A DNA stretch of 32,321 nucleotides from an uncultured Candidatus Saccharibacteria bacterium. Its GTDB lineage: Bacteria > Patescibacteriota > Minisyncoccia > Phycocordibacterales > VMEP01. Below are positions 9,481-21,261 of the stretch, in pieces (positions within the stretch are counted from its first letter, which is position 1; the number at the start of each line of letters is the position of its first letter). The translations under genes were made by a program, and so were the position numbers. The notes beneath the pieces were generated by a model that saw only the letters and a program-made list of their open reading frames with translations, had not been told where the DNA came from and searched no databases. The stretch is from contig CAYHZS010000002.1 in assembly GCA_964361185.1 (NCBI GenBank), positions 1-32,321 of the forward strand. The letters run 5' to 3'.

Positions 9481-9510
9481 AAAACCCGCCAATTCGGCGG
9501 GTTTTGTTTT
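9481..9510 (+). terminator. Intrinsic terminator after rplK
   Basis: AAAACCCGCC, loop AATTC, then GGCGGGTTTTGTTTT. Confidence 0.8.
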
Positions 9511-9590
9511 TAAGGGCGGGTTGTGATAGGTATATGTGTAGAAACGTAAGGTTTTGCGATTTGGCACTTAAGTCAAACGGAGGTGGTTTA

Positions 9591-10151
9591 ATGAAAAAAG
9601 TGACGTCTCTTCGCGAACTCAGGATGCTTATGAAGGATTTTGGCGTAGATACAAGCACTTGGGGTAGAGATAAAGCCAAAACTCTGACCCATCTTTTTTG
9701 CGAAGTCAGGGATGGTGAATGCGCTCTTGCCGTAACCGATGACGGCAGACTGGTCAGAGAGGTTTCCGTTCTCTGTCTGGATATTGAGTACAAGGGAATG
9801 GTTTTGAGAGAGGACTTCCAGCTTTTCTACGAGGGCAAGCGCCGACGCGAAAGGGAGCTTGATGCGTCAACGGGCGAAAAGTTTAAGCCTGGAGAAACAC
9901 CGGAACAAGCCCTTAGCCGCTTGGTCAACGAGGAGTTCCCGATCCTGTCCCTTCAGCCCAAAGAAGATTTCAAGTTTACGGGGGATAAGTTCAGGGAGTC
10001 AGACAGCGTAAGTTACCCCGGACTCCATACACGCTACCGACTGTGCTTTTTCGCGGTTGAGCTTACAGTGGAACTGCCGGCGATAACTGTCCAGGAGCCT
10101 GACAAGCTTGTGGCATACAAGTGGGTTGCCTCACCCACGCGGTCAACGTAA
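9591..10151 (+). CDS. Hypothetical protein, 186 aa, GC-richer orphan with a degenerate Nudix-box-like segment
   Basis: Strong SD GGAGGTG 5 nt before the ATG at 9591. GEKFKPGETPEQALSRLVNEEFPI resembles Gx5Ex7REUxEExGU, but with one extra residue and RL in place of RE. Confidence 0.55.
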   Translation: MKKVTSLRELRMLMKDFGVDTSTWGRDKAKTLTHLFCEVRDGECALAVTDDGRLVREVSVLCLDIEYKGMVLREDFQLFYEGKRRRERELDASTGEKFKPGETPEQALSRLVNEEFPILSLQPKEDFKFTGDKFRESDSVSYPGLHTRYRLCFFAVELTVELPAITVQEPDKLVAYKWVASPTRST

Positions 10152-10165
10152 CCAAGATGCGTAGC

Positions 10166-10199
10166 ATTGCCAGCCAACGAAAAGGACTGGCAATTTTTA
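10166..10199. terminator. Terminator between converging genes (orphan + / HAD operon -)
   Basis: ATTGCCAG pairs with CTGGCAAT, followed by TTTTT. Confidence 0.7.
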
Positions 10200-10208
10200 T
10201 CCCTATTT

Positions 10209-10865
10209 TTAAAGATACTTTTCGAGTTCAAGCAGGGAGGAGAGCTGCGGGCAATCAACGCCATCGTTTTTTTCTTTGATATTCACTAAAATACTTTTTA
10301 CTCCTATATTTTTTGGAACTTCATAGTCACTCATAACCCTGTCGCCGATATAAAGGAAATTTTCCGGAGGCAAATCATAAAAAGACAGCCATATTTTATA
10401 AGCTGAGCCGTCTGATTTTGAAGCGTCATCTTTAGTGATAATGTGGCTGAAGATTTCTTTGCCGATGTCGAGCTTCTTAAGTTTTCTATGGGTTATTGAA
10501 CCGTTAGATCCGGTGATTACATCCAAATTTTTATATTTTTCTTTAAGTTTTTTTAAAAGATTTATAGTCTCCGGGTTTGGAACGAGGAATGAGGCTATGT
10601 CGGCCCTCTCGAGCGCTTCCTGGACGATTTCTTTTCCGTTTGGTATCTCCAGAGTCGCAAGCGCCTTGCTCCCTCCCATACCCGCTCCATCTTTGTAAAG
10701 ATCGGCGAAAAGCGCCCTCGCCTCTCCCAAGGAGCACTTTTTGCTCGCGGCAATTTTTTCATAAATATATTTTTGAATTGCCTCGTCAATTTCCGGCGAT
10801 TTCGGATACAGAGTCTGGTCAAGATCAAAGCCAATGACTTTAGTTTTATTTTTGTAATCAATCAT
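10209..10865 (-). CDS. HAD-superfamily hydrolase, resembles pyrimidine 5'-nucleotidase (SDT1-like) subfamily
   Basis: FDLDQTLY motif I, ITGSN motif II region and YIGDRVMSD motif IV. Its ATG overlaps the stop of the upstream 803-aa gene (ATGA). Confidence 0.75.
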   Translation of the reverse strand: MIDYKNKTKVIGFDLDQTLYPKSPEIDEAIQKYIYEKIAASKKCSLGEARALFADLYKDGAGMGGSKALATLEIPNGKEIVQEALERADIASFLVPNPETINLLKKLKEKYKNLDVITGSNGSITHRKLKKLDIGKEIFSHIITKDDASKSDGSAYKIWLSFYDLPPENFLYIGDRVMSDYEVPKNIGVKSILVNIKEKNDGVDCPQLSSLLELEKYL

Positions 10866-13273
10866 TGTGTAAAAGCGACGTAAAACAAAGAAAGGTTCCC
10901 AAGGGGATATCCAAGTGTTTCACTGAATTTTGTCGATATATAGTTTAGTAATTCAAGGTCTTCTTTTTGTTTGCTAATGGAATGGTTCATAAAGACTGCC
11001 GTCGCGTGTACTTTACCGCCCATTACGTTCGCCTGGAAGAACGCCAAATAGTCTCCCTGAGGGTCCATTTTTCCGGCTTTGTACTCCGTTAAAATAGGAT
11101 TATTATGCATTACTCCTTTTTCTTTAAGATAGAAAATAGCTTTTTCAATTGTGTTTACACCCTCCATATTTTCCAGCCGGTCGAGAATAAAATTATTTGG
11201 TCGCGAAGCTATTTTCTGAAGAGGGACAAAGCTATAAGCAACACCGGTTTCATTCGCCAAAGGAAACTTGGTGTTTTCGGCTAGCTGGTATGGTCCGCTT
11301 TTTGAATCAATTTCATCCATCGGTTTAGATGGTTCGCTCATCAGTTTTTTAGACCGCTGTTCTTCAGTCAGAAGGAGTATGTTTGCTCTACTTGATAACA
11401 TATACATATCTCCGGGTTTCGCGCCGAGTTTCTCTCTAACGGTGCATATATAAGCGTCATGAAGACCAAATATATTTTCGGGGTACGCATTCACGGTATT
11501 ATGGGCGCGAGCTATGTGAAATGAGTGCAGATGTCCGTTTTGCAGAAAAAAAATATCATGAGTAAGGCACGGGTCGTGCGTGTACTTTGTTTTGCCGGTG
11601 TCCGGGTCGGTATAGCTTCTCATGTCTTCTACCGGGTCAAAGCGCTGTATTATAGCGGCTCTAGTCGGATTATTTTTTAGAACAAGGGCGGTTTTAGGGA
11701 GCTGATCAAAGCCAAAAAACACCCTCGTGCGTTCCCCGTAGCTATAGTCGCCATCATGGTCAAAACGCAGAAGCTGGGCTTTGTAAGCCTCACGTATTTC
11801 TTCAGTACTTCTCTCTCCCTGTTTGTATATTGCCGAAAGCGAGGCCAGCGCTTTTGCGGCATTGCGGTAAATCGCGAGCATTACCGCGGAACGAGCCGAC
11901 CCTTTTTGCTTATCGCCGTGTTCTTCCGTAAGTCCTTGAGTATATATTTTCATAAGGACTTGCTTATGTACGTCTAAAAAATTATCCCCGTCGGCTATGA
12001 GTAGGGGAAGACTCTCCGTATTAATCTTGAAAATGTTTGGGAAGTCTTGAATAAAAGCGTAATTAAACGAAGCGGCTATGGTGGCCCGGCCGATTTGCCC
12101 ACCAATGTCAATTCGGTGCAGTATGTCCATTTCGTAGTTCTCAAAGCGGTTATTTTCGGACAGCCATTCAAAAAGCCCGCCGATTTTTAGAGATCGCAGT
12201 TCGAAAACTTCCTCGCAGACATCAAAAGCGAGGCACATTACCGCTACTTGGCTCTCCCTTACGTTAATTTTGTAATAATATTTTTTATCGGTTATGAGAG
12301 AAACTTTTGATTCAAGCATTATTTCTTTTTGCCCGGTAAGGTTCTTTGATTTCACGAAAGAAGGGAATTTTATTTCATTTTTTATCTCCGCGCTTACGCG
12401 GGCAATTTCCGCTCCCAGGAAAAACTGGTTTAAGTTGCCTATTTCTTTTTTCCTGTCGCCTAAAAATTTCATAAGGGAATATTCAAGCAAAAATTCGTCC
12501 GGACTTTTTATAAAAAAAGTGTCTTCACCTACCCTGATATCCAGGCGGATTAATCCTTTTTTGTTTTGCACTATAAAATCAACTTCAGGGACAAATTCTT
12601 TCGGAGGTATGTCTATTTTGGGTGGTTGCAGATGCTGAAATTCTTTCGGGTCAAGCTCCACAACTCCGCGTTCTTTAGGCGCGGATGCTCCAAGGAGAGA
12701 CACAAGCTTGTTCAATGAGTCGTAATATATTTTCCCTGTTTCGTTCGCTTCTTTCAAAAATTCATATACGTCTGATGGCAGTTTTGGACGCGCCCATTCC
12801 AGATAGTCAATGACTATCTTCTTGCCGTAATCGTTCTTGTACATGAACATCGGTAGGACTGTTATATTGTCGCGGAATGAATCCACTATTTTTTCGGAGA
12901 GGCTCGGGTAGTGTGACGAGGCCGCCTTGCCGTTTATTATCTGGTGGTCGCGGTCTTCGATGTTGATTCCATACTGAAGCGCCAAGAGAAGATTCGTGCT
13001 TGGTGAAAAGGTGAGCGACTCCTCGGAGAAAAGTATGAGATATGAGAGCGTGGGGTGGGACAGGGAATTTAGTATCATTCTTTCGGCCCCATCCCGGCTT
13101 ACGATAAGAGAACCCAAGACCGAAACAAAACGCCGTTCCTTTCCCTCAAGTTCATTCAGCACCTGTCCCGGGGCGGTGGTGTTGGTGCAGATGCCTATAA
13201 AACCGTCTTTACCCTCAGGTGGAGTTAAGAGAAGCGCATCCACTATCGGGAATTGGGAAATTTTTACAGCCAT
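10862..13273 (-). CDS. 803-aa fusion of an MtrA-like domain, two DUF4346-like modules, a thymidylate-synthase-fold domain and a degenerate TS-like C-terminal segment
   Basis: Residues ~1-165 (nt 12779-13273) align by eye to MtrA: G.L....DGAE..I.NSLSHP.LSYLILFSEES...L..GI......I.G. Residues ~228-412 (nt 12038-12592) hold two modules ending FLGAEIARVSAEI and RIDIGGQIGRATIAASFNYAFIQD. Residues ~425-640 (nt 11354-12001) carry YGER...FDQLPKTALVLKNNPTRAAIIQRFDP...DPCLTHDIFFLQNGHLHSFHIARAHN...YPENI, with the Cys codon at 11567-11569. Confidence 0.7.
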   Translation of the reverse strand: MAVKISQFPIVDALLLTPPEGKDGFIGICTNTTAPGQVLNELEGKERRFVSVLGSLIVSRDGAERMILNSLSHPTLSYLILFSEESLTFSPSTNLLLALQYGINIEDRDHQIINGKAASSHYPSLSEKIVDSFRDNITVLPMFMYKNDYGKKIVIDYLEWARPKLPSDVYEFLKEANETGKIYYDSLNKLVSLLGASAPKERGVVELDPKEFQHLQPPKIDIPPKEFVPEVDFIVQNKKGLIRLDIRVGEDTFFIKSPDEFLLEYSLMKFLGDRKKEIGNLNQFFLGAEIARVSAEIKNEIKFPSFVKSKNLTGQKEIMLESKVSLITDKKYYYKINVRESQVAVMCLAFDVCEEVFELRSLKIGGLFEWLSENNRFENYEMDILHRIDIGGQIGRATIAASFNYAFIQDFPNIFKINTESLPLLIADGDNFLDVHKQVLMKIYTQGLTEEHGDKQKGSARSAVMLAIYRNAAKALASLSAIYKQGERSTEEIREAYKAQLLRFDHDGDYSYGERTRVFFGFDQLPKTALVLKNNPTRAAIIQRFDPVEDMRSYTDPDTGKTKYTHDPCLTHDIFFLQNGHLHSFHIARAHNTVNAYPENIFGLHDAYICTVREKLGAKPGDMYMLSSRANILLLTEEQRSKKLMSEPSKPMDEIDSKSGPYQLAENTKFPLANETGVAYSFVPLQKIASRPNNFILDRLENMEGVNTIEKAIFYLKEKGVMHNNPILTEYKAGKMDPQGDYLAFFQANVMGGKVHATAVFMNHSISKQKEDLELLNYISTKFSETLGYPLGNLSLFYVAFTQ

Positions 13274-14148
13274 TTTTTACTAGACCATTGATTCGGCAAA
13301 AGCTCATCCAGAGAGTATTGCTTGAATTCCATTGTGTCTTTGGCGAAACAGTACAATTTAATATTCAAATCGTATTTGGCGCTTATTTCGGCCAGAAATT
13401 GTCGGCAGCATCCGCAAATCTCACACGGGGTGTCGGTAAATTTTGTTGACACTAAACCGAGCGCGGTAATTTTTGTTTTGTCGTTCATAAGGGCAAGGAT
13501 TGGCGCCGCCATTTCACTATGGATGCTTCCTCTTTTTTCAAAACTGGAATATTGCCCGGTATAGTATATTGTCCCGTCCTCCGTCAGCACGGCCGTGCTG
13601 TAGGCACTCGCGTTGTCGTAGGTATGGAAGCACTTGCTAAGCCCCTCATCAGCGTATTTCTTAAGCTGGTCTTTCACAGAAAGACTTTTGTCAAAGGTGG
13701 CTTTATTTTCGGAAATAACCGCTCCCGTTACTTTTGAGAGTATCTTTTGAGGCGGACGATAAAAACTGATTGTTTCGGAGATCTTTGGGGCCGAGAATAT
13801 CTCGCGCCCGTCCATGTCTATTATTCTATACCTGATTTCGCTACCGGTCCGCACGCAGAAATCAATCATGGTTTTTACCGTAAACGGATTTACCATAAAG
13901 CCGTCGCTTTTTTCCACTAGAGTTACCATTTCCTCCACTTCGTAATCGCTATGAGATACCGCCAAAAGAAGAGCCGATTGTTCCGAAGAAATGTTCAGTA
14001 GATTCGTGTCGGAGTCGATATTCGCCCCGCGGTATTTCCGCCCGCTTTTTGAATAGCAGACGGAAGAGGTCCGGTTCGCCCCCCCGATGACTTTTTTAAC
14101 GACAGCGAGAGGAAGCCCGTCTTTCAAATAAGATAACTCGTCAGCCAT
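13264..14148 (-). CDS. Tandem cytidine/deoxycytidylate-deaminase-fold protein (N-terminal half degenerate, C-terminal half with Zn motifs)
   Basis: The C-terminal half has SIHSEMAA...TPCEICGCCRQFLAE...LLPNQW, which matches the (H/C)AE...PCxxC pattern with HSE. The N-terminal half has SSEQSALLLAV and no PCxxC. Confidence 0.7.
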   Translation of the reverse strand: MADELSYLKDGLPLAVVKKVIGGANRTSSVCYSKSGRKYRGANIDSDTNLLNISSEQSALLLAVSHSDYEVEEMVTLVEKSDGFMVNPFTVKTMIDFCVRTGSEIRYRIIDMDGREIFSAPKISETISFYRPPQKILSKVTGAVISENKATFDKSLSVKDQLKKYADEGLSKCFHTYDNASAYSTAVLTEDGTIYYTGQYSSFEKRGSIHSEMAAPILALMNDKTKITALGLVSTKFTDTPCEICGCCRQFLAEISAKYDLNIKLYCFAKDTMEFKQYSLDELLPNQWSSKKWL

Positions 14149-14150
14149 AT

Positions 14151-15044
14151 TTAAATGTTGCTCCTTAACTTGCTGACACTCAACTGGGCGGCTTCCCAGT
14201 CATAATGTAGAGTTTTTTTAATGAAGTCGTTTAACAGATGAATTTTGTCTCTTTCGAGTCGCGGGTACATTTTTTCCGATTTCTTGCTGGTGAGGCGGAC
14301 AGTAGGAACAAATGAAACAGGAAAAGCGTAATACGGCAGAAGCGGGCGCCTTGGTGACTCTGGTTCCACCAAAATGGCTGTGATTGGCTTACCGAGTTTT
14401 TCTATGGCGTAGTCGATTCGGTGAGCACCGTCACAGATGATGTAAAAATCTTGCTTGCCGTTGTATCTTAGCCCGTAATTTATAATCGGAGCGTTCGAGT
14501 TGAAAACATCCAGATAATCTAGTTTGCTCACTTCGTCGATGTAGAATGAAGTTAGGAATCTCTTTGAAATGTTATGCAAATTATTGCGCGCGTCGGTTGT
14601 ATATGTATTTTCAAATCGTTTGCTGATTTTATCAAGGTCAAGATATCCATTTTTAAGTTCGTAGGTATGTTTTTCGATAATGGGTGGCAGTATGTGGAAA
14701 TCCCCGCGTCCCTCCCAATTGTACTGAAGCCCGTTTTTTAAGTTGTTTATACGCATTTTATGCGCGCGCAGAAATTTATCGACGGTATCAAAAACCTCCA
14801 TTTGGTTTTCGTAAATCGTCGGCTGGGGAGTAAAAAGATTGTGCTTTTTATCATCAACGGCTATTTTTGGAGACTGACCTATTTTTTGGGGTGGGTGTAT
14901 CGTAACCAGTTTAAATTTTGCCCGCTGGTATGGTTTTAGGGACATTCCTTTCTTATCAAAAAGTCCGCGAAAAACCACTTTCCGCAACATTGATGTCAGT
15001 TGGGCAAACGGGATTATCCCCTTCAAAACTAGCTTTTCTTTCAT
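14151..15044 (-). CDS. ParB/sulfiredoxin-fold-like protein (hypothetical, 297 aa)
   Basis: FYIICDGAHRIDYAIEKLGKPITAILVE matches the DGxHR core of the ParB/Srx fold. An upstream ILPPII segment is also present. There is no P-loop. Confidence 0.45.
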   Translation of the reverse strand: MKEKLVLKGIIPFAQLTSMLRKVVFRGLFDKKGMSLKPYQRAKFKLVTIHPPQKIGQSPKIAVDDKKHNLFTPQPTIYENQMEVFDTVDKFLRAHKMRINNLKNGLQYNWEGRGDFHILPPIIEKHTYELKNGYLDLDKISKRFENTYTTDARNNLHNISKRFLTSFYIDEVSKLDYLDVFNSNAPIINYGLRYNGKQDFYIICDGAHRIDYAIEKLGKPITAILVEPESPRRPLLPYYAFPVSFVPTVRLTSKKSEKMYPRLERDKIHLLNDFIKKTLHYDWEAAQLSVSKLRSNI

Positions 15045-15050
15045 TGTCTA

Positions 15051-15079
15051 AATATATAGTTAAGTTGGCGATGTTGCAA
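15051..15079 (-). promoter_or_regulatory. Putative sigma70-type promoter of the ParB-like operon: TTGCAA-17 nt-TATATT
   Basis: The -35 is at 15074-15079 and the -10 at 15051-15056. Only 6 nt separate the -10 from the ATG (15044) and there is no SD, which suggests a leaderless transcript. Confidence 0.5.
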
Positions 15080-15110
15080 TATTGAACAATTCTCTATTTT
15101 ACTTGCAATT

Positions 15111-15119
15111 TGCTACAAT
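15111..15119 (+). promoter_or_regulatory. Extended -10 element TGcTACAAT of dut
   Basis: It ends 6 nt before the dut ATG (15126) and there is no SD, which suggests a leaderless transcript. Confidence 0.5.
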
Positions 15120-15125
15120 ATTTTA

Positions 15126-15548
15126 ATGAAAATAAAGGTTAAAAAACTGACAAAGGATACGAAAATTCCGGCATACGCCTATCCGGGGGATGCGGCTTTT
15201 GATTTGCTCGCGCGGGTGGAAACGGAGTTAAACCCCGGTGAATGGAAAAATGTCCCGACCGGGCTTGCTTTTGAAATACCGGAAGGATACGCGGGGCTTA
15301 TTTGGGACAAATCGAGCGTTGCCATGAAAAATGGAATCAAAACATTAGGGGGAGTGATAGATTCCGGTTACCGCGGAGAAGTGGACGTAGGGGTTATTAA
15401 TTTAAGCGACAAACTGTATCTTTTTGAAAAGGGGCACAAGGTGGCTCAGATGATAATTCAAAAAATAGAACAGGCAGAAATTATTGAAGTTGCGGGGCTA
15501 AGCGAAACTAAGCGGGGAGACAAGGGTTTTGGCAGTTCGGGGAAATAA
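15126..15548 (+). CDS. dut: dUTP diphosphatase (trimeric dUTPase)
   Basis: AYPGDAAFDL, GVIDSGYRGE and RGDKGFGSSG are dUTPase motifs. Confidence 0.95.
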   Translation: MKIKVKKLTKDTKIPAYAYPGDAAFDLLARVETELNPGEWKNVPTGLAFEIPEGYAGLIWDKSSVAMKNGIKTLGGVIDSGYRGEVDVGVINLSDKLYLFEKGHKVAQMIIQKIEQAEIIEVAGLSETKRGDKGFGSSGK

Positions 15549-17763: not shown

Positions 17764-20700
17764 ATGGACAAAAAAGATTCCAACGAAAAAAGAAAATCAG
17801 AAGTGGCGCTTACTGAAGAGCGTATTTTGGCCGGCTGGAAAGAAAAAAAGATTTTTGAGAAAACTCTTGAAAAGACCAAGAACGGTAAGCTGTTTGTTTT
17901 TTACGATGGCCCGCCTTTTGCGACAGGAGAGCCTCACTACGGGCATATTTTGGCAGGCACGATAAAAGATGCCATTCCGCGCTACCGCACAATGACGGGG
18001 CGGTATGTGAGGCGCCAGTGGGGTTGGGACTGTCATGGTCTTCCTGTTGAAAATATCATAGAGCAGGAACTCAAACTTTCTCACAAAAAAGACATAGAAG
18101 AATATGGCATAGGCAATTTCAATGAAGCGGCGCGGAGTGCCGTGCTTAGGTTTGATTCATTTTGGAAAAAGGCGGTACCGAGACTTGGGCGTTTCGTGGA
18201 CATGGATTTGTCGTATAAAACTATGGATGCCTCTTATTCTGAATCAATCTGGTGGGCGTTTAAAACTCTTTACGACAAAGGGCTCATATATGAAGGACAT
18301 AAAGTAATGTATGTCTGTCCCAGATGCGAGACACCAGTCTCCAATTTTGAGGTGGCGCAGGGGTATAAAGATACAACCGATATTTCGGTGACAGTGGAGT
18401 TTAAGTTGGTTGATAGTCCCGGCACATCTTTTCTGGCGTGGACTACTACGCCGTGGACGTTACCGGGCAATGTGGCTCTTGCTGTGGGTAAAGATATCGA
18501 CTATGTGACGATTGAGAAGAAAGACGAAGGTGTCGGAAAGAAAATTCGGTTCATTCTTGCGAAAAGTCGCCTTGAAACAATTTTTGCGGGGCAAGAATAT
18601 GTCATTGTGGCCGAGCACAAGGGGATGGATTTGGTTGGCATCAAGTATGTGCCACCCTTCGATTACTACTATAAAGATGAGTTATTAAATAACCGCGAAA
18701 ATGGTTGGAAGGTCTACGCGGCAGATTTCGTTTCAGCAGATGAGGGCACAGGCATAGCTCACGAAGCCCCAGCGTTTGGCGAGGATGACATGAATTTAGG
18801 CAACGAAGTTAAGTTGCCATTTGTCCAACACATAGAGATGGATGGACGATTTAAACCGGAGGTCAAAGATTTTGCCGGCATGTATGTAAAACAGAAAGAC
18901 GATACGCAGTCGGCGGATGTGGAAATCATAAAAAATCTGGCCAAGAGAAATCTGCTTTTCGCCAAAGAAAAAATAATCCATCCGTACCCAATGTGCTGGA
19001 GATGCGACACGCCTCTTCTCAATTACGCCACTCCGTCTTGGTTCGTTAAGGTAACGAAATTCCGCGACAAGGTCGTTTCAGAAAATAAAAAAGTCTGCTG
19101 GGTGCCGGAGCATGTGGGAGAAGGAAGATTCGGCAAATGGCTCGAAGGCGCGCGCGATTGGGCTATTTCACGTTCGCGCTATTGGGGCGCGCCTTTGCCC
19201 GTTTGGAAATGCCTGGAATGTGAAAAGGTTGAAGCGATAGGGAGCATAGAAGAGTTAAAGAAAAAAATTCCTAAAAGTGGCAATCGTTATTTTGTTATGC
19301 GCCACGGCCAGGCGGAAAGTAATGTTTCCGGGACCAATGATTCCAATGGTAATCCCGATAATCATCTTACGGAGAGCGGGAAGGAAAGTATAAAACTTGT
19401 CGCTAGTAAACTCTCTAAAGAAGGAATAACCCGTATCATAACGTCACCCTTCCCCCGCGCCAAAGAAAGCGCGGACATTATAGCGAATGAGCTAGGATTA
19501 TCGGAAGAGAAGATTGTATCAGATAGGCGCTTGATTGAATTCAATCATGGCTCCAAAGGTCAAGGTAAAACAATAATGAATAACACCTTAGAACCTTTTA
19601 ATGAAAATGATTTATATGTTAGGCATGGCGATGGTGAAAATCACGCAGAAGTCAGGACAAGGGTAGTTTCAGCTATATTCGACGCGGACAAAACATATAA
19701 GAATGAAACTATTCTCATAGTCACGCACGGTTCTCCCATGTGGATGCTTATTGCCGGAGCTCTAGGCATGAGCGACAAGGAAACACTGGAATATCAGAAA
19801 AAGCGTGCTAAAAATAATGGGGATTATTTCATCTCAAACGGCCAGGTTGAGGAGGTTGATTTTACACAGTTTCCTCACAATAAGGAGTATGTTATTGATT
19901 TACACCGCCCGTACATAGACGAGGTGATTTATGATTGCTCTTGTGGAGGAACGATGAAAAGAATTCTGGACGTTTTTGACTGCTGGTTTGAATCGGGGTC
20001 AATGCCTTACGCGCAGTTCCATTATCCATTTGAGAACAAGGAGGAATTCAAGAAAAATTTTCCGGCTGATTTTATTGCTGAAGGTCTCGACCAAACGCGC
20101 GGTTGGTTTTACAGCCTGATTATTTTGGGCGTCGGGCTTTTTGGAGAAACACCATACAGAAATGTCATCGTGAACGGACTGGTTTTGGGAAGTGACGGGC
20201 AGAAAATGTCCAAGCGTCTCAAGAATTATCCGGAAGTTATGGATGTGGTGGATAAATACGGCGCTGATTCTTTGCGATATTACCTCTTATCTTCTCCAAT
20301 AATGCGCGGGGAAGACTTGGTATTTTTGGAAAAAGGAATTGATGAAATATACAAGAAAAATATTTCCCGCCTCAATAATGTTTACTCTTTTTACGAATTA
20401 TATAAGGGAGACGAAAAGGGAAGCGACACTTCGGAAAATATTCTGGATAAATGGATTATCGCGCGCCTGAATGAACTTAAAAATGTAATGACCGAGGGGA
20501 TGGAAAAATACGAGCTTGATAAAGTGGCGAGGCCAGTCGCGGATTTTATTGACGATCTTTCCACATGGTATATCAGGCGCTCGCGCGAAAGATTTAAATC
20601 AGACAATGAAAATGATAAAAAAATGGCGCTTGAGACAACCCATTTTGTGCTTGAGGAATTTTCCAAGCTCATTGCCCCGCTTATGCCGTTTATAGCGGAT

Positions 20701-21261
20701 GATTTGTATTTGAAAGTTACACGTGGGGAAAAAGAAGAAAGCGTGCATTTGGAATCTTGGCCCAGTAACAACGGACAACGAACAACCAACAACCAACAAG
20801 TAATACAAGAAATGCAAAAGGTGCGTCAAATTGTTTCGCTTGGACTTGAGGCGAGATCGAAGGCGGGGATAAAAGTGAGGCAGCCGCTTCAAAACTTAAA
20901 ACTCAAAACTCAAAACTTAGAACCTGAATATATTGAATTAATTAAAGATGAAGTAAATGTGAAGGGAGTTACTTTTGATGAAGAGATTGAAAATGAAGTT
21001 GAATTGGATACAAATATTACACCAGAACTAAAAGAAGAAGGCGATGTTCGCGATTTAGTACGCGCTATTCAGGATTTCAGAAAAAAGGAAGGTCTTACTC
21101 CGAGCGACAAGGTTGCGCTTTTGGTTTCCTGCGACGAAAAAACAGCTTCTTTGATAAAAAAGAATGAAGATGAGTTAAAGCACTCAACTCTTTTAAGTCA
21201 TATATCCATTTCAAACTCCGACGGAGAAACTTCTTTCCAGGTGCTTAATCCGGGGTCGTAA
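17764..21261 (+). CDS. ileS: Isoleucine--tRNA ligase (type-2-like) carrying an inserted histidine-phosphatase domain
   Basis: PHYGH (HIGH), WAISRSRYWGAPLPVW, DQTRGWFYS and KMSKRL are IleRS signatures. At 1165 aa it is longer than expected because of the insert at 19285-19860. Confidence 0.95.
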   Translation: MDKKDSNEKRKSEVALTEERILAGWKEKKIFEKTLEKTKNGKLFVFYDGPPFATGEPHYGHILAGTIKDAIPRYRTMTGRYVRRQWGWDCHGLPVENIIEQELKLSHKKDIEEYGIGNFNEAARSAVLRFDSFWKKAVPRLGRFVDMDLSYKTMDASYSESIWWAFKTLYDKGLIYEGHKVMYVCPRCETPVSNFEVAQGYKDTTDISVTVEFKLVDSPGTSFLAWTTTPWTLPGNVALAVGKDIDYVTIEKKDEGVGKKIRFILAKSRLETIFAGQEYVIVAEHKGMDLVGIKYVPPFDYYYKDELLNNRENGWKVYAADFVSADEGTGIAHEAPAFGEDDMNLGNEVKLPFVQHIEMDGRFKPEVKDFAGMYVKQKDDTQSADVEIIKNLAKRNLLFAKEKIIHPYPMCWRCDTPLLNYATPSWFVKVTKFRDKVVSENKKVCWVPEHVGEGRFGKWLEGARDWAISRSRYWGAPLPVWKCLECEKVEAIGSIEELKKKIPKSGNRYFVMRHGQAESNVSGTNDSNGNPDNHLTESGKESIKLVASKLSKEGITRIITSPFPRAKESADIIANELGLSEEKIVSDRRLIEFNHGSKGQGKTIMNNTLEPFNENDLYVRHGDGENHAEVRTRVVSAIFDADKTYKNETILIVTHGSPMWMLIAGALGMSDKETLEYQKKRAKNNGDYFISNGQVEEVDFTQFPHNKEYVIDLHRPYIDEVIYDCSCGGTMKRILDVFDCWFESGSMPYAQFHYPFENKEEFKKNFPADFIAEGLDQTRGWFYSLIILGVGLFGETPYRNVIVNGLVLGSDGQKMSKRLKNYPEVMDVVDKYGADSLRYYLLSSPIMRGEDLVFLEKGIDEIYKKNISRLNNVYSFYELYKGDEKGSDTSENILDKWIIARLNELKNVMTEGMEKYELDKVARPVADFIDDLSTWYIRRSRERFKSDNENDKKMALETTHFVLEEFSKLIAPLMPFIADDLYLKVTRGEKEESVHLESWPSNNGQRTTNNQQVIQEMQKVRQIVSLGLEARSKAGIKVRQPLQNLKLKTQNLEPEYIELIKDEVNVKGVTFDEEIENEVELDTNITPELKEEGDVRDLVRAIQDFRKKEGLTPSDKVALLVSCDEKTASLIKKNEDELKHSTLLSHISISNSDGETSFQVLNPGS
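19285..19860 (+). other. Histidine-phosphatase (PGAM/CobC-like) domain embedded in ileS
   Basis: RYFVMRHGQAESN (RHG motif), SPFPRAKESA, LIEFNHG..GQGKT, GENHAEVRTRV and ILIVTHGSPMWML (second His motif). The segment lies between KCLECE and DCSCGG. Confidence 0.8.
20765..20799 (-). repeat. Heptad array E inside ileS: GTAACAA CGGACAA CGAACAA CCAACAA CCAACAA
   Basis: Five 7-mers on the C/A strand (complement TTGTTGG TTGTTGG TTGTTCG TTGTCCG TTGTTAC). They encode SNNGQRTTNNQQ. Confidence 0.75.
20891..20925 (+). repeat. Heptad array F inside ileS: AAAACTT AAAACTC AAAACTC AAAACTT AGAACCT
   Basis: Five 7-mers that encode QNLKLKTQNLEP. Confidence 0.75.

Follow-up and report, generated by a model that had tools for sequence, protein, structure and literature searches.

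A conserved four-gene module built around a multidomain thymidylate-synthase-fold protein in Patescibacteria and DPANN archaea, a candidate replacement for ThyA and ThyX

To our knowledge, thymidylate synthesis occurs in two forms only, ThyA and ThyX, and many genomes of candidate phyla radiation (CPR) bacteria and DPANN archaea show neither. Here we describe a locus in a 32,321-nucleotide stretch of DNA (the window; contig CAYHZS010000002.1, positions 1 to 32,321) from an uncultured Candidatus Saccharibacteria bacterium, in which four minus-strand genes, called G1 to G4 below, lie divergent from a dUTP diphosphatase gene (dut) and encode a ParB-like protein, a tandem cytidine deaminase, an 803-aa protein with a thymidylate synthase (TS) fold and a phosphatase. 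The four genes form one conserved, translationally coupled module, found in a scattered minority of Patescibacteria and in DPANN archaea. On balance, we think it probable that this module is a self-contained replacement for ThyA and ThyX that produces the thymine nucleotide of the cell, which makes it a testable candidate for the missing thymidylate step in at least 48 species-level lineages from two domains.

An ordinary TS is an obligate homodimer. The ThyA family, especially its short archaeal (methanogen) type represented by the model TIGR03283, shares with the TS-fold protein G3 the fold itself, the Pro-Cys of the active site, R166, Y94, the DQ pair and Asn177 (ThyA numbering). However, G3 scores far below the family cut-offs and has changed contact residues. 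Its TS domain is joined in one chain to MtrA-like and DUF4346-like domains and to a second, dead TS half, so that G3 probably acts as a pseudo-dimeric monomer where ThyA forms a homodimer. A ParB-CE partner always accompanies it. ThyX would share its inferred role, thymidylate synthesis without dihydrofolate reductase (DHFR, FolA), and is mutually exclusive with the module (1/48 carriers vs 31/101 sampled genomes), but its fold is unrelated and G1 to G4 give no PF02511 signal.

The pre-replicative modules by which phages modify pyrimidines (T4 with its dCMP hydroxymethylase, SPO1 and ViI with a dUMP hydroxymethylase, RB69 and DLP3 with a 5-hydroxy-dCMP synthase) each include a dUTPase or dCTPase, a dCMP deaminase and a dNMP kinase. 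The present locus follows the same logic, combining a TS-fold enzyme with a deaminase, a dUTPase, a phosphatase and a putative phosphotransfer partner dedicated to it. Unlike these modules, it is a cellular housekeeping locus, its TS-fold enzyme is predicted to select uracil (Asn) and not cytosine (Asp), the partner has a ParB/sulfiredoxin (ParB/Srx) fold in place of a P-loop dNMP kinase, the deaminase is a nucleoside-type tandem protein and not a dCMP deaminase, and glycosyl- or other transferase genes are absent nearby. Literature searches returned no published description of the module in Patescibacteria, of an MtrA-TS fusion, of DUF4346 or of ParB-CE, in agreement with the original prediction, made from the window's sequence, that this is not a described system. 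Some G3 members are labelled 'thymidylate synthase' by JGI, and NCBI labels them 'hypothetical protein'.

Conservation of the module

The genes of the module and the divergent dut lie in the window as follows:

G1: 14151-15044, minus strand; open reading frame (ORF) of 297 aa, ParB-CE protein (predicted ParB/Srx fold), putative obligate partner of G3
G2: 13264-14148, minus strand; ORF of 294 aa, tandem cytidine-deaminase fold
G3: 10862-13273, minus strand; ORF of 803 aa, multidomain TS-fold protein, the core enzyme
G4: 10209-10865, minus strand; ORF of 218 aa, haloacid dehalogenase (HAD) phosphatase, possibly a pyrimidine nucleotidase
dut: 15126-15548, plus strand; dUTP diphosphatase, divergent neighbour of G1

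The original prediction described four minus-strand genes packed for translational coupling, and direct reading of the junctions bears this out at each coordinate. The TAA stop codon of G1 is separated by a 2-nt gap (14149-14150) from the ATG of G2, which an AGGAG precedes by about 12 nt. The next junction, G2/G3, is a 10-nt overlap (13264-13273, ATGGCTGTAA), and G3 and G4 share an ATGA overlap (10862-10865). The product of dut is an ordinary dUTPase (PF00692, E 2.4e-30; NF001862, 138.5 bits, above its cut-off).

The carrier set consists of 48 loci found by a pattern scan, with one genome per GTDB species, and synteny was assessed by tblastn and ORF clustering at the 40 informative loci, the other 8 being cut by contig ends. 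At 37 of these 40, among CPR bacteria and at eight DPANN loci, the four genes follow one another as G1-G2-G3-G4 on a single strand. This preservation of order and strand in two domains of life takes the arrangement beyond chance, and the gene order predicted from a single genome is thus found co-localised in its relatives as well. One archaeal locus (L046) has the order G3-G4-G1-G2, another (L051) has G3-G4 but neither G1 nor G2 within 7 kb, and a third locus (L018) lacks G4 over the same distance; flanking DNA is present in the latter two. The same gene order was seen in three contigs found by exact-protein look-up.

An exhaustive profile search also found two Rosetta-stone fusions. P0268 (1111 aa) joins G2 to G3, its N-terminus being 36% identical to G2 (E 9e-57); only one contig has it, and a frameshift introduced by sequencing may underlie it. 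P0269 (981 aa) joins G3 to G4, with a C-terminus 49% identical to G4 (E 4e-62), and comes from several sources.

Thirty-eight of the 48 carriers are bacterial or bacterially labelled (Paceibacterota, Kaiser-, Nomura-, Zambryski-, Sungii- and Vogelbacteria, as well as metagenome-assembled genomes (MAGs) labelled Saccharibacteria, Peribacteria or Gracilibacteria). The module also occurs in DPANN archaea, which the original prediction had not foreseen: ten carriers belong to the archaea (Woesearchaeota, Nanoarchaeota, Iainarchaeum and others), with full-length identities of 42-47%. In a quick maximum-likelihood tree, all archaeal G3 sequences form one clade (SH-aLRT 100), nested among the bacterial sequences when the tree is rooted with distant relatives. 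This suggests one interdomain transfer of G3 between CPR bacteria and DPANN archaea, on a topology in which the outgroup branches are very long. The carrier genomes are reduced (0.4-1.4 Mb), the neighbours of the module include the housekeeping genes for L11, NusG, SecE and ArgRS, and the module sequences are strongly conserved (63-67% mean column identity).

The core protein G3 and its partners

G3 has more than 180 full-length homologues in Patescibacteria (52-86% identity), and its AlphaFold2 (AF2) model has a pLDDT of 82.8. We divide the protein as follows (window coordinates):

Residues 1-205: 12659-13273, minus strand; MtrA-like Rossmann domain
Residues about 331-408: 12050-12283, minus strand; DUF4346-like (PF14251), within the middle region 206-421
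Residues 422-654: 11312-12010, minus strand; catalytic archaeal-type TS-fold domain
Residues 655-803: 10865-11311, minus strand; degenerate second TS-like half-domain, the presumed pseudo-dimer partner

The TS-fold megafusion of the original prediction is confirmed by structure and profile comparisons, and the MtrA-like, DUF4346-like and degenerate second TS domains within it go beyond that prediction. The best match of the catalytic domain in structural comparisons (VIA) is the flavin-dependent dCMP hydroxylase 9iqc/9iqu (Z 17.9 to 9iqc), followed by MilA (16.1), ThyA (3ix6_B, 16.0, with 195 residues aligned at rmsd 3.0) and T4 dCMP hydroxymethylase (13.1). Foldseek matches to the TS family range from E 1e-8 to 1e-6, and hhalign gives probabilities of 98.3% to ThyA and 99.6% to the short archaeal-type TS. 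Family models are matched weakly (TIGR03283, E 1.6e-15, 57.1 bits against a cut-off of 174.55), and PF00303 does not match the window's G3 at E<=1 but does match 5 of 32 homologues (best E 3.6e-5). A search of PDB sequences with the G3 profile returned MtrA and no TS, and a search for shorter homologues of the TS domain returned only fragments of G3's own family.

The C-terminal half-domain aligns to ThyA residues 97-201 (hhalign 94.9%, E 4e-8) and to the short TS (93.4%), and its language-model features resemble those of short phage and bacterial TS-like proteins. It has Tyr at the position of the catalytic Cys, N724/N725 in place of R126/R127, and no R166. Direct hhalign comparison of the TS and C-terminal domains detected no repeat (probability 3%), so that the TS likeness of the latter appears only through the ThyA and short-TS profiles. 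Given that the ordinary TS is an obligate homodimer and that the second half-domain here is dead, G3 is probably an intramolecular pseudo-dimer. The duplication in G2, with one active and one dead half, follows the same pattern.

The N-terminal domain superposes on cobalamin-bound MtrA (5laa_B, VIA Z 13.0, 147 of 159 residues aligned) and matches NF002126 (E 2e-7). PF04208 is matched by 25 of 32 homologues (best E 5.9e-7), and the window's own G3 reaches 14.7 bits, under the cut-off of 25. The cobalt-site residues of MtrA are Glu54, His84 and the GAIPF/YxEN motif (PMC4915002). None of these is kept in G3, which has S59 and S90 at the first two positions and a non-matching, poorly modelled loop (108-121) at the third. 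The invariant stretches R60-N69 and F89-L96 fall in the two loops that bear Glu54 and His84 in MtrA, and a third invariant stretch, C29-Q37, follows the first strand. We considered corrinoid binding by this domain and set it aside since the MtrA ligand residues lend it no support, although His-off binding is possible. In the middle region, PF14251 is recognised through relatives: it is found in the fused homologue P0268 at residues 634-711 (E 1e-5, no stretch passing alone), in the distant relatives P0288 (4e-13), P0291 and P0284, and in one member of the G3-family alignment at E 0.028. A language-model search with residues 206-421 returned nothing, and residues 206-330 carry no domain assignment.

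At five loci (L008, L011, L013, L015 and L037), a PduO-type cobalamin adenosyltransferase gene (PF01923, E 1e-42) lies about 5-6 kb downstream of the module. Its proximity may reflect shared synteny and deserves mention given the MtrA-like domain of G3.

Several residues central to TS chemistry are invariant among 32 homologues: C569 (C146 of ThyA, in the Pro-Cys), R589 (R166), N600 (N177), Y512 (Y94) and D523-Q524 (DQ). In the TS family, Asn at position 177 is uracil-specific, and Asp there marks cytosine-specific enzymes (PMC13326640). A second position, L143 of ThyA, excludes water in methyl-forming TS (PMC13326640) and corresponds to His566-Asp567 in G3. We tried the rule that a hydrophobic residue there indicates a methyl product and an acidic one a hydroxymethyl product, and dropped it: throughout the short archaeal-type TS-like proteins and the MtrA-TS fusions, this position is D, E or H.

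Among canonical-length ThyA-like proteins of other sampled Patescibacteria (L054, L056-L062), eight of nine have Asp at N177 and Asn at L143 and keep E58, D169, H207 and Y209. By the published rule they carry a dCMP-type signature and not a dUMP-type one, and may act on dCMP, as hydroxymethylases or methylases, instead of making thymidylate.

The closest relatives of G3 are uncharacterised archaeal MtrA-TS fusions, e.g. RLE55459.1, P0406 (in the cluster of P0303), from a Thermoprotei archaeon. The archaeal MtrA-TS(-DUF4346) fusions of about 460-520 aa and the MtrA-DUF4346-TS proteins of 811-906 aa have the same TS-fused domain families as G3. The ThyA-like motifs RSxD and HxY are retained in the shorter fusions, whose match to MtrA is strong (E 1e-25 to 1e-42), whereas G3 has the derived ARAHN and RANIL in their place, matches MtrA weakly and additionally contains an unassigned segment and the second TS half-domain. 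Since RSxD and HxY are also kept by the short archaeal-type TS-like proteins, G3 is a derived branch of the archaeal-type TS clade. Although it is predicted to work as a C5 transferase in the manner of the TS family, its failure to reach the thresholds, its changed folate and sugar contacts and its presumed loss of the homodimer lead us to class it as a multidomain derivative of the archaeal-type TS and not as a ThyA. Like G3, a distant 877-aa MtrA-DUF4346-TS relative has an adjoining ParB-CE gene; next to the three distant relatives examined, no deaminase or HAD partner was seen. One MtrA-TS fusion of 522 aa (L063:6001-7569), which clusters with the 527-aa protein RLE55459.1 from Thermoprotei, is surrounded by a resolvase, a PD-(D/E)XK protein and numerous small ORFs without annotation, in what looks like a virus-like or mobile region.

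G1 is placed in the ParB-CE family by PF24392, which matches all 28 aligned orthologues (best E 3.2e-8), the window's own G1 scoring 21 bits against a cut-off of 23; its ESM Atlas cluster is named 'ParB CE domain-containing protein'. A Foldseek search of the PDB with the AF2 model (pLDDT 80.6) gave no match. The ParB/Srx set appeared only in an exhaustive VIA search, where the best eight matches all have this fold, with Z scores of only 4.2-5.8 over 81-97 aligned residues (sulfiredoxin 5.8, PadC 4.9, the serine kinase SerK 4.8, SbnI 4.6, with ParB N-domains among the eight). The motif C204-D-G-x-H208-R209 is invariant in the family alignment, and of 201 evenly sampled genomes of the phylum, the two that have G3 are also the two that have G1. 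Of the original proposal of a ParB/Srx protein acting as a small-molecule kinase, the fold is recovered by the family profile and, tentatively, by the modelled structure, and the kinase role is hypothetical: the likeness to SerK and SbnI is one of modelled fold, and G1 may instead be an activator or subunit, being found beside G3 even where thymidylate kinase (Tmk) is present. As a plain replacement for Tmk, G1 is a weakened candidate, since it stays with G3 in Tmk-bearing carriers (e.g. L016, L017, L019 and L028). A ParB-like protein as the obligate partner of a pyrimidine-C5-modifying enzyme has a precedent in the phage 5mYOX-ParB pairs (PMC13229309). With these phage activators and with the ParB/Srx kinases and sulfiredoxin G1 has in common a predicted ParB/Srx-like fold and a DGxHR-type motif, but it belongs to a separate family (PF24392), has large insertions, and superposes over only about 90-100 of its 297 residues. 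PHROGs gave no match for G1 or G2, and generic TS and HAD matches only.

G2 matches the cytidine deaminase model TIGR01354 over residues 162-291 (E 1.4e-11), below threshold (44.7 vs 113.65 bits), as is its match to PF00383 (20.3 vs 25). The C-terminal half has a zinc site (H210, E212, C245-G246-x-C248-R249-Q250) kept in at least 95% of 42 orthologues, and the N-terminal half retains E56 and has lost the zinc ligands. The two halves align to each other (hhalign probability 96%, E 3e-9), as expected for the tandem deaminase of the original prediction. We take HxE together with CGxCRQ to be the signature of nucleoside cytidine deaminases, as known from cdd enzymes. From its motifs, G2 is an active-plus-dead tandem in which only the C-terminal half is predicted to be catalytic.

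G4 was likewise correctly predicted to have the HAD fold (PF13419, 50.9 bits, cut-off 23.8; PF00702, 49.8 bits, cut-off 26.4). Every motif is present, with motifs I-IV (D14xD16, T118, K150 and D175/D180) kept in at least 95% of sequences. Subfamily models are matched below threshold, namely TIGR02253 (E 5e-18, 65.6 vs 169.75 bits), YjjG (1.8e-8) and TIGR01993 for SDT1-type pyrimidine 5'-nucleotidases (E 2e-15, 57 bits vs a cut-off of 142.9), where the equivalog level is not reached. The nearest named models are that of an uncharacterised HAD subfamily and the SDT1-type one. G4 is a complete HAD phosphatase and possibly a pyrimidine nucleotidase.

A candidate route to thymine nucleotides and its alternatives

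We compared the enzymes of thymidylate and one-carbon (C1) metabolism in the carriers with a phylum sample of 201 evenly sampled genomes, in 101 of which ThyX was counted. Absences rest on Pfam models in incomplete MAGs, and because the carriers are MAGs and mutually related, the following counts are indicative rather than a statistical test:

ThyX: 1/48 carriers; 31/101 phylum sample
Canonical ThyA: about 1/48 carriers, a fragment; the other matches are G3 itself
Thymidine kinase (TK): 4/48 carriers
Tmk: 12/48 carriers; 144/201 phylum sample
FolA: 1/48 carriers
Serine hydroxymethyltransferase (SHMT), anywhere in the genome: 28/48 carriers; 1/10 archaea

The window's genome (771 kb, 95.8% complete) has no detected ThyA, ThyX, SHMT, FolA, Tmk, TK, ribonucleotide reductase (RNR) of class I/II or III, deoxynucleoside kinase (dNK) or formate-tetrahydrofolate (THF) ligase. 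It thus lacks both known synthases and the nucleoside kinases TK and dNK, a check that the original prediction had called for. FolD and Fmt are present, so the organism uses folates. At 95.8% completeness, no enzyme that would account for the supply of deoxynucleotides or for the loading of C1 units onto folate was detected.

Many ThyX proteins of Patescibacteria are tandem-duplicated single ORFs of about 520-610 aa (e.g. G063:C1:331399-333597, G087:C8:21657-23834 and G186:C4), and in several genomes ThyX-ThyX and Tmk lie within one open frame of about 787 aa. The sole carrier with ThyX (G238) carries this form, 760 aa long, on a short separate contig (C58).

The original prediction, itself hedged, was of a non-canonical thymidylate route or a route to a C5-modified pyrimidine, and it is supported by the folds, the co-localisation and the absence of ThyA and ThyX. 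We start from what is observed, namely folds, motifs, synteny, fusions, co-occurrence and the complementary distribution; from these we infer the phosphorylation state of the substrate, the C1 donor, that the product carries a methyl group, and what G1, G4 and the accessory domains do. In the proposed route to thymine nucleotide, the dUTPase would supply uracil deoxynucleotide, and G2, as a pseudo-dimeric nucleoside-type deaminase with an active C-terminal half, would supply uracil (deoxy)nucleoside. Cys569 of G3 would activate C6 of the uracil selected by Asn600, a one-carbon unit would be installed at C5, and the degenerate C-terminal half-domain would stand in for the second subunit of an ordinary TS. 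The MtrA and DUF4346 families are otherwise tied to pterin/corrinoid C1 transfer, and the corresponding domains of G3 probably hold or deliver a C1 or redox cofactor. SHMT adjoins the module at 13/48 loci and dut at 16/48, often as a divergent SHMT-dut pair; because of this proximity to SHMT and the presence of FolD and Fmt in the window's genome, the C1 unit would most likely come from methylene-folate. With FolA missing, the C1 cycle probably does not end in free dihydrofolate (DHF). G1 would be the obligate, nucleoside triphosphate (NTP)-dependent partner of G3, either as a kinase of a nucleoside, nucleotide or intermediate or as a non-catalytic activator, and G4, probably a pyrimidine nucleotidase, would link the pools of nucleotides and nucleosides, for instance by providing G2 with deoxycytidine (dC).

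A more specific version is less likely than not but has a real chance of being right: G1 and G3 would constitute a mechanistically distinct third thymidylate route, in which a monomeric, pseudo-dimeric TS acts with a C1 or reducing cofactor on its MtrA-like and DUF4346-like domains and with an NTP-dependent ParB partner. Forming dTMP without release of DHF would explain why FolA is absent from 47 of the 48 carriers. In a more extreme version, the product would be hydroxymethyl-uracil and the cells would replace thymine (T) in their DNA. Either way, a TS-fold enzyme is tied here to methanogen C1-metabolism families (MtrA and DUF4346) and to a ParB-fold partner, which bears on how TS chemistry can be re-wired in cofactor, oligomeric state and DHFR independence, and on ParB-CE function and the balance of deoxynucleotide pools in ultra-small symbionts.

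Several observations weigh against a thymidylate-forming role for the module. The folate and sugar contacts of G3 are changed (D169 to N592, S167 to A590, H207 to N631 and Y209 to L633), W80 and W83 are lost or changed (W80 falling in an alignment gap), and the phosphate ligands R126'/R127' from the partner subunit correspond to N724/N725 of the second domain. By manual extension beyond the aligned range, E58 would correspond to L479. E58, D169, H207 and Y209 are retained in ThyA, in the CPR ThyA-like proteins and in phage TS homologues. With such a changed contact set, the substrate of G3, its sugar and phosphate recognition and its cofactor may differ from those of TS. SHMT and formate-THF ligase, as possible sources of the C1 unit, are lacking in the window's genome, and SHMT in 9 of 10 DPANN carriers. 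A nucleotidase coupled or fused to a dTMP-forming enzyme looks futile unless the substrate differs. About 60% of the sampled Patescibacteria have neither ThyA nor ThyX anyway, so this absence is not specific to carriers, and the carrier genomes are MAGs of unknown completeness and phylogenetically non-independent.

These points leave room for other products. We hold it unlikely, though worth serious thought, that the product of the module is not thymidylate but another uracil nucleotide modified at C5, in the simplest case 5-hydroxymethyl-dUMP as in SPO1- and ViI-type phages. G3 would then be a dUMP hydroxymethylase fed by G2 and Dut, G1 a dedicated kinase for the modified nucleotide, G4 and the NUDIX-like neighbour described below would deplete the canonical nucleotide, and the modified base would replace T partly or wholly in the DNA of the carriers, which would be the first cellular instance of phage-style base replacement. 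The parts fit phage logic (TS homologue, deaminase, dUTPase, nucleotidase and special kinase), hydroxymethylation yields THF and not DHF, in keeping with the lack of FolA, and Tmk is depleted among carriers. A nucleotidase fused to G3 would also make sense if it removed dTMP or dUMP. Asp, present in G3 as part of His566-Asp567 at the L143 position, is found there in the SPO1-like and ViI-like phage TS homologues, which are putative dUMP hydroxymethylases annotated merely as 'hypothetical protein' or 'thymidylate synthase'; however, the L143 rule fails in the archaeal-type TS clade, which includes the type annotated as methanogen thymidylate synthase, and is uninformative here. G3 also lacks the E58, D169, H207 and Y209 that these phage homologues keep. 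We know of no cellular prokaryote that replaces T genome-wide, and T would have to be dispensable in the at least 40 of 48 carriers without another known source of dTMP. Two carrier MAGs moreover have 0.5-0.6 Mb contigs with names in the 'contig_N' style and intact genes; if these are nanopore assemblies, heavy substitution of T would be expected to degrade them.

An improbable variant of the thymidylate route has G3 acting on a substrate without the 5'-phosphate, as a salvage at the nucleoside level: dCMP and dUMP would be converted to dC and deoxyuridine (dU) by G4, dC to dU by G2 and dU to thymidine by G3, followed by phosphorylation by G1. The CGxCRQ motif of G2 is nucleoside-type, and G2 matches TIGR01354 and not the dCMP deaminase models. 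In G3 phosphate ligands are lost (S167 to A, R126'/R127' to N724/N725) and the 3'-OH contacts H207 and Y209 are altered; against this, the main phosphate ligand R589 (R166) shows no variation, and the consensus keeps R538 (R126). The window's genome, with no detectable RNR, TK or dNK, must salvage deoxynucleosides with unknown kinases. The step from dTMP to dTDP would still be lacking in 36 of 48 carriers, and the adjacency of dUTPase suggests dUMP as input. We know of no TS-family enzyme that acts on a nucleoside. Less probable still is a modified pyrimidine for use outside DNA, whether in secondary metabolism, where MilA serves mildiomycin, or as a cofactor or signal. The CMP hydroxymethylase MilA ranks high among the structural matches of G3 (Z 16.1), a ribo- or other substrate could be accommodated given the altered sugar contacts (H207 to N, Y209 to L), and a related MtrA-TS protein lies in the virus-like region of a Thermoprotei contig. 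Yet the module sits beside housekeeping genes in reduced genomes of a kind that rarely keep secondary metabolism, is linked to dut and SHMT, is distributed in a manner complementary to ThyX and is strongly conserved in sequence.

Flanking signals and neighbouring genes

The features that flank the module in the window are as follows:

G1-dut intergenic region: 15045-15125, 81 bp between the divergent genes; contains the candidate promoter
Candidate promoter TTGCAA-17-TATATT: 15079-15051, minus strand; 9/12 positions matched
Hairpin: 10166-10199, between the convergent G4 and NUDIX-like genes; about -15 kcal/mol
NUDIX-like gene: 9504-10151, plus strand, convergent with G4; 215 aa, PF00293 at E 1.4e-5

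The head-to-head spacing of 81 bp between the module and dut agrees with the ORF coordinates. The promoter assigned to this interval has the motif and spacing described, but with 9 of 12 positions matched it is statistically indistinguishable from background, promoter-like sites in the region being no more frequent than expected (9 found vs 9.9 in shuffled sequence). It is plausible from its position only. The hairpin that was thought to close the operon is real (z -2.2 to -2.5, on both strands), but its T-run lies on the plus strand only, which fits a terminator of the NUDIX-like gene or a bidirectional terminator better than a classic minus-strand terminator.

A family of genes of about 188 aa, with no Pfam match, lies just downstream of G4 in 13/48 loci, in either orientation and including distant Peribacteria-labelled genomes, and a weak NUDIX gene occupies the same place in locus L003. 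By position and size alone, the NUDIX-like gene of the window is presumed to be of the same family. It may be a fifth, accessory member of the module, for example a dNTP pyrophosphatase.

Further along the window, on the plus strand at 17764-21261, a 1165-aa class I aminoacyl-tRNA synthetase (tRNA-synt_1, Anticodon_1) has a histidine-phosphatase domain (His_Phos_1) inserted at residues 510-676. The same insertion is found in the synthetase of a distant carrier genome (L030:13040-16381).

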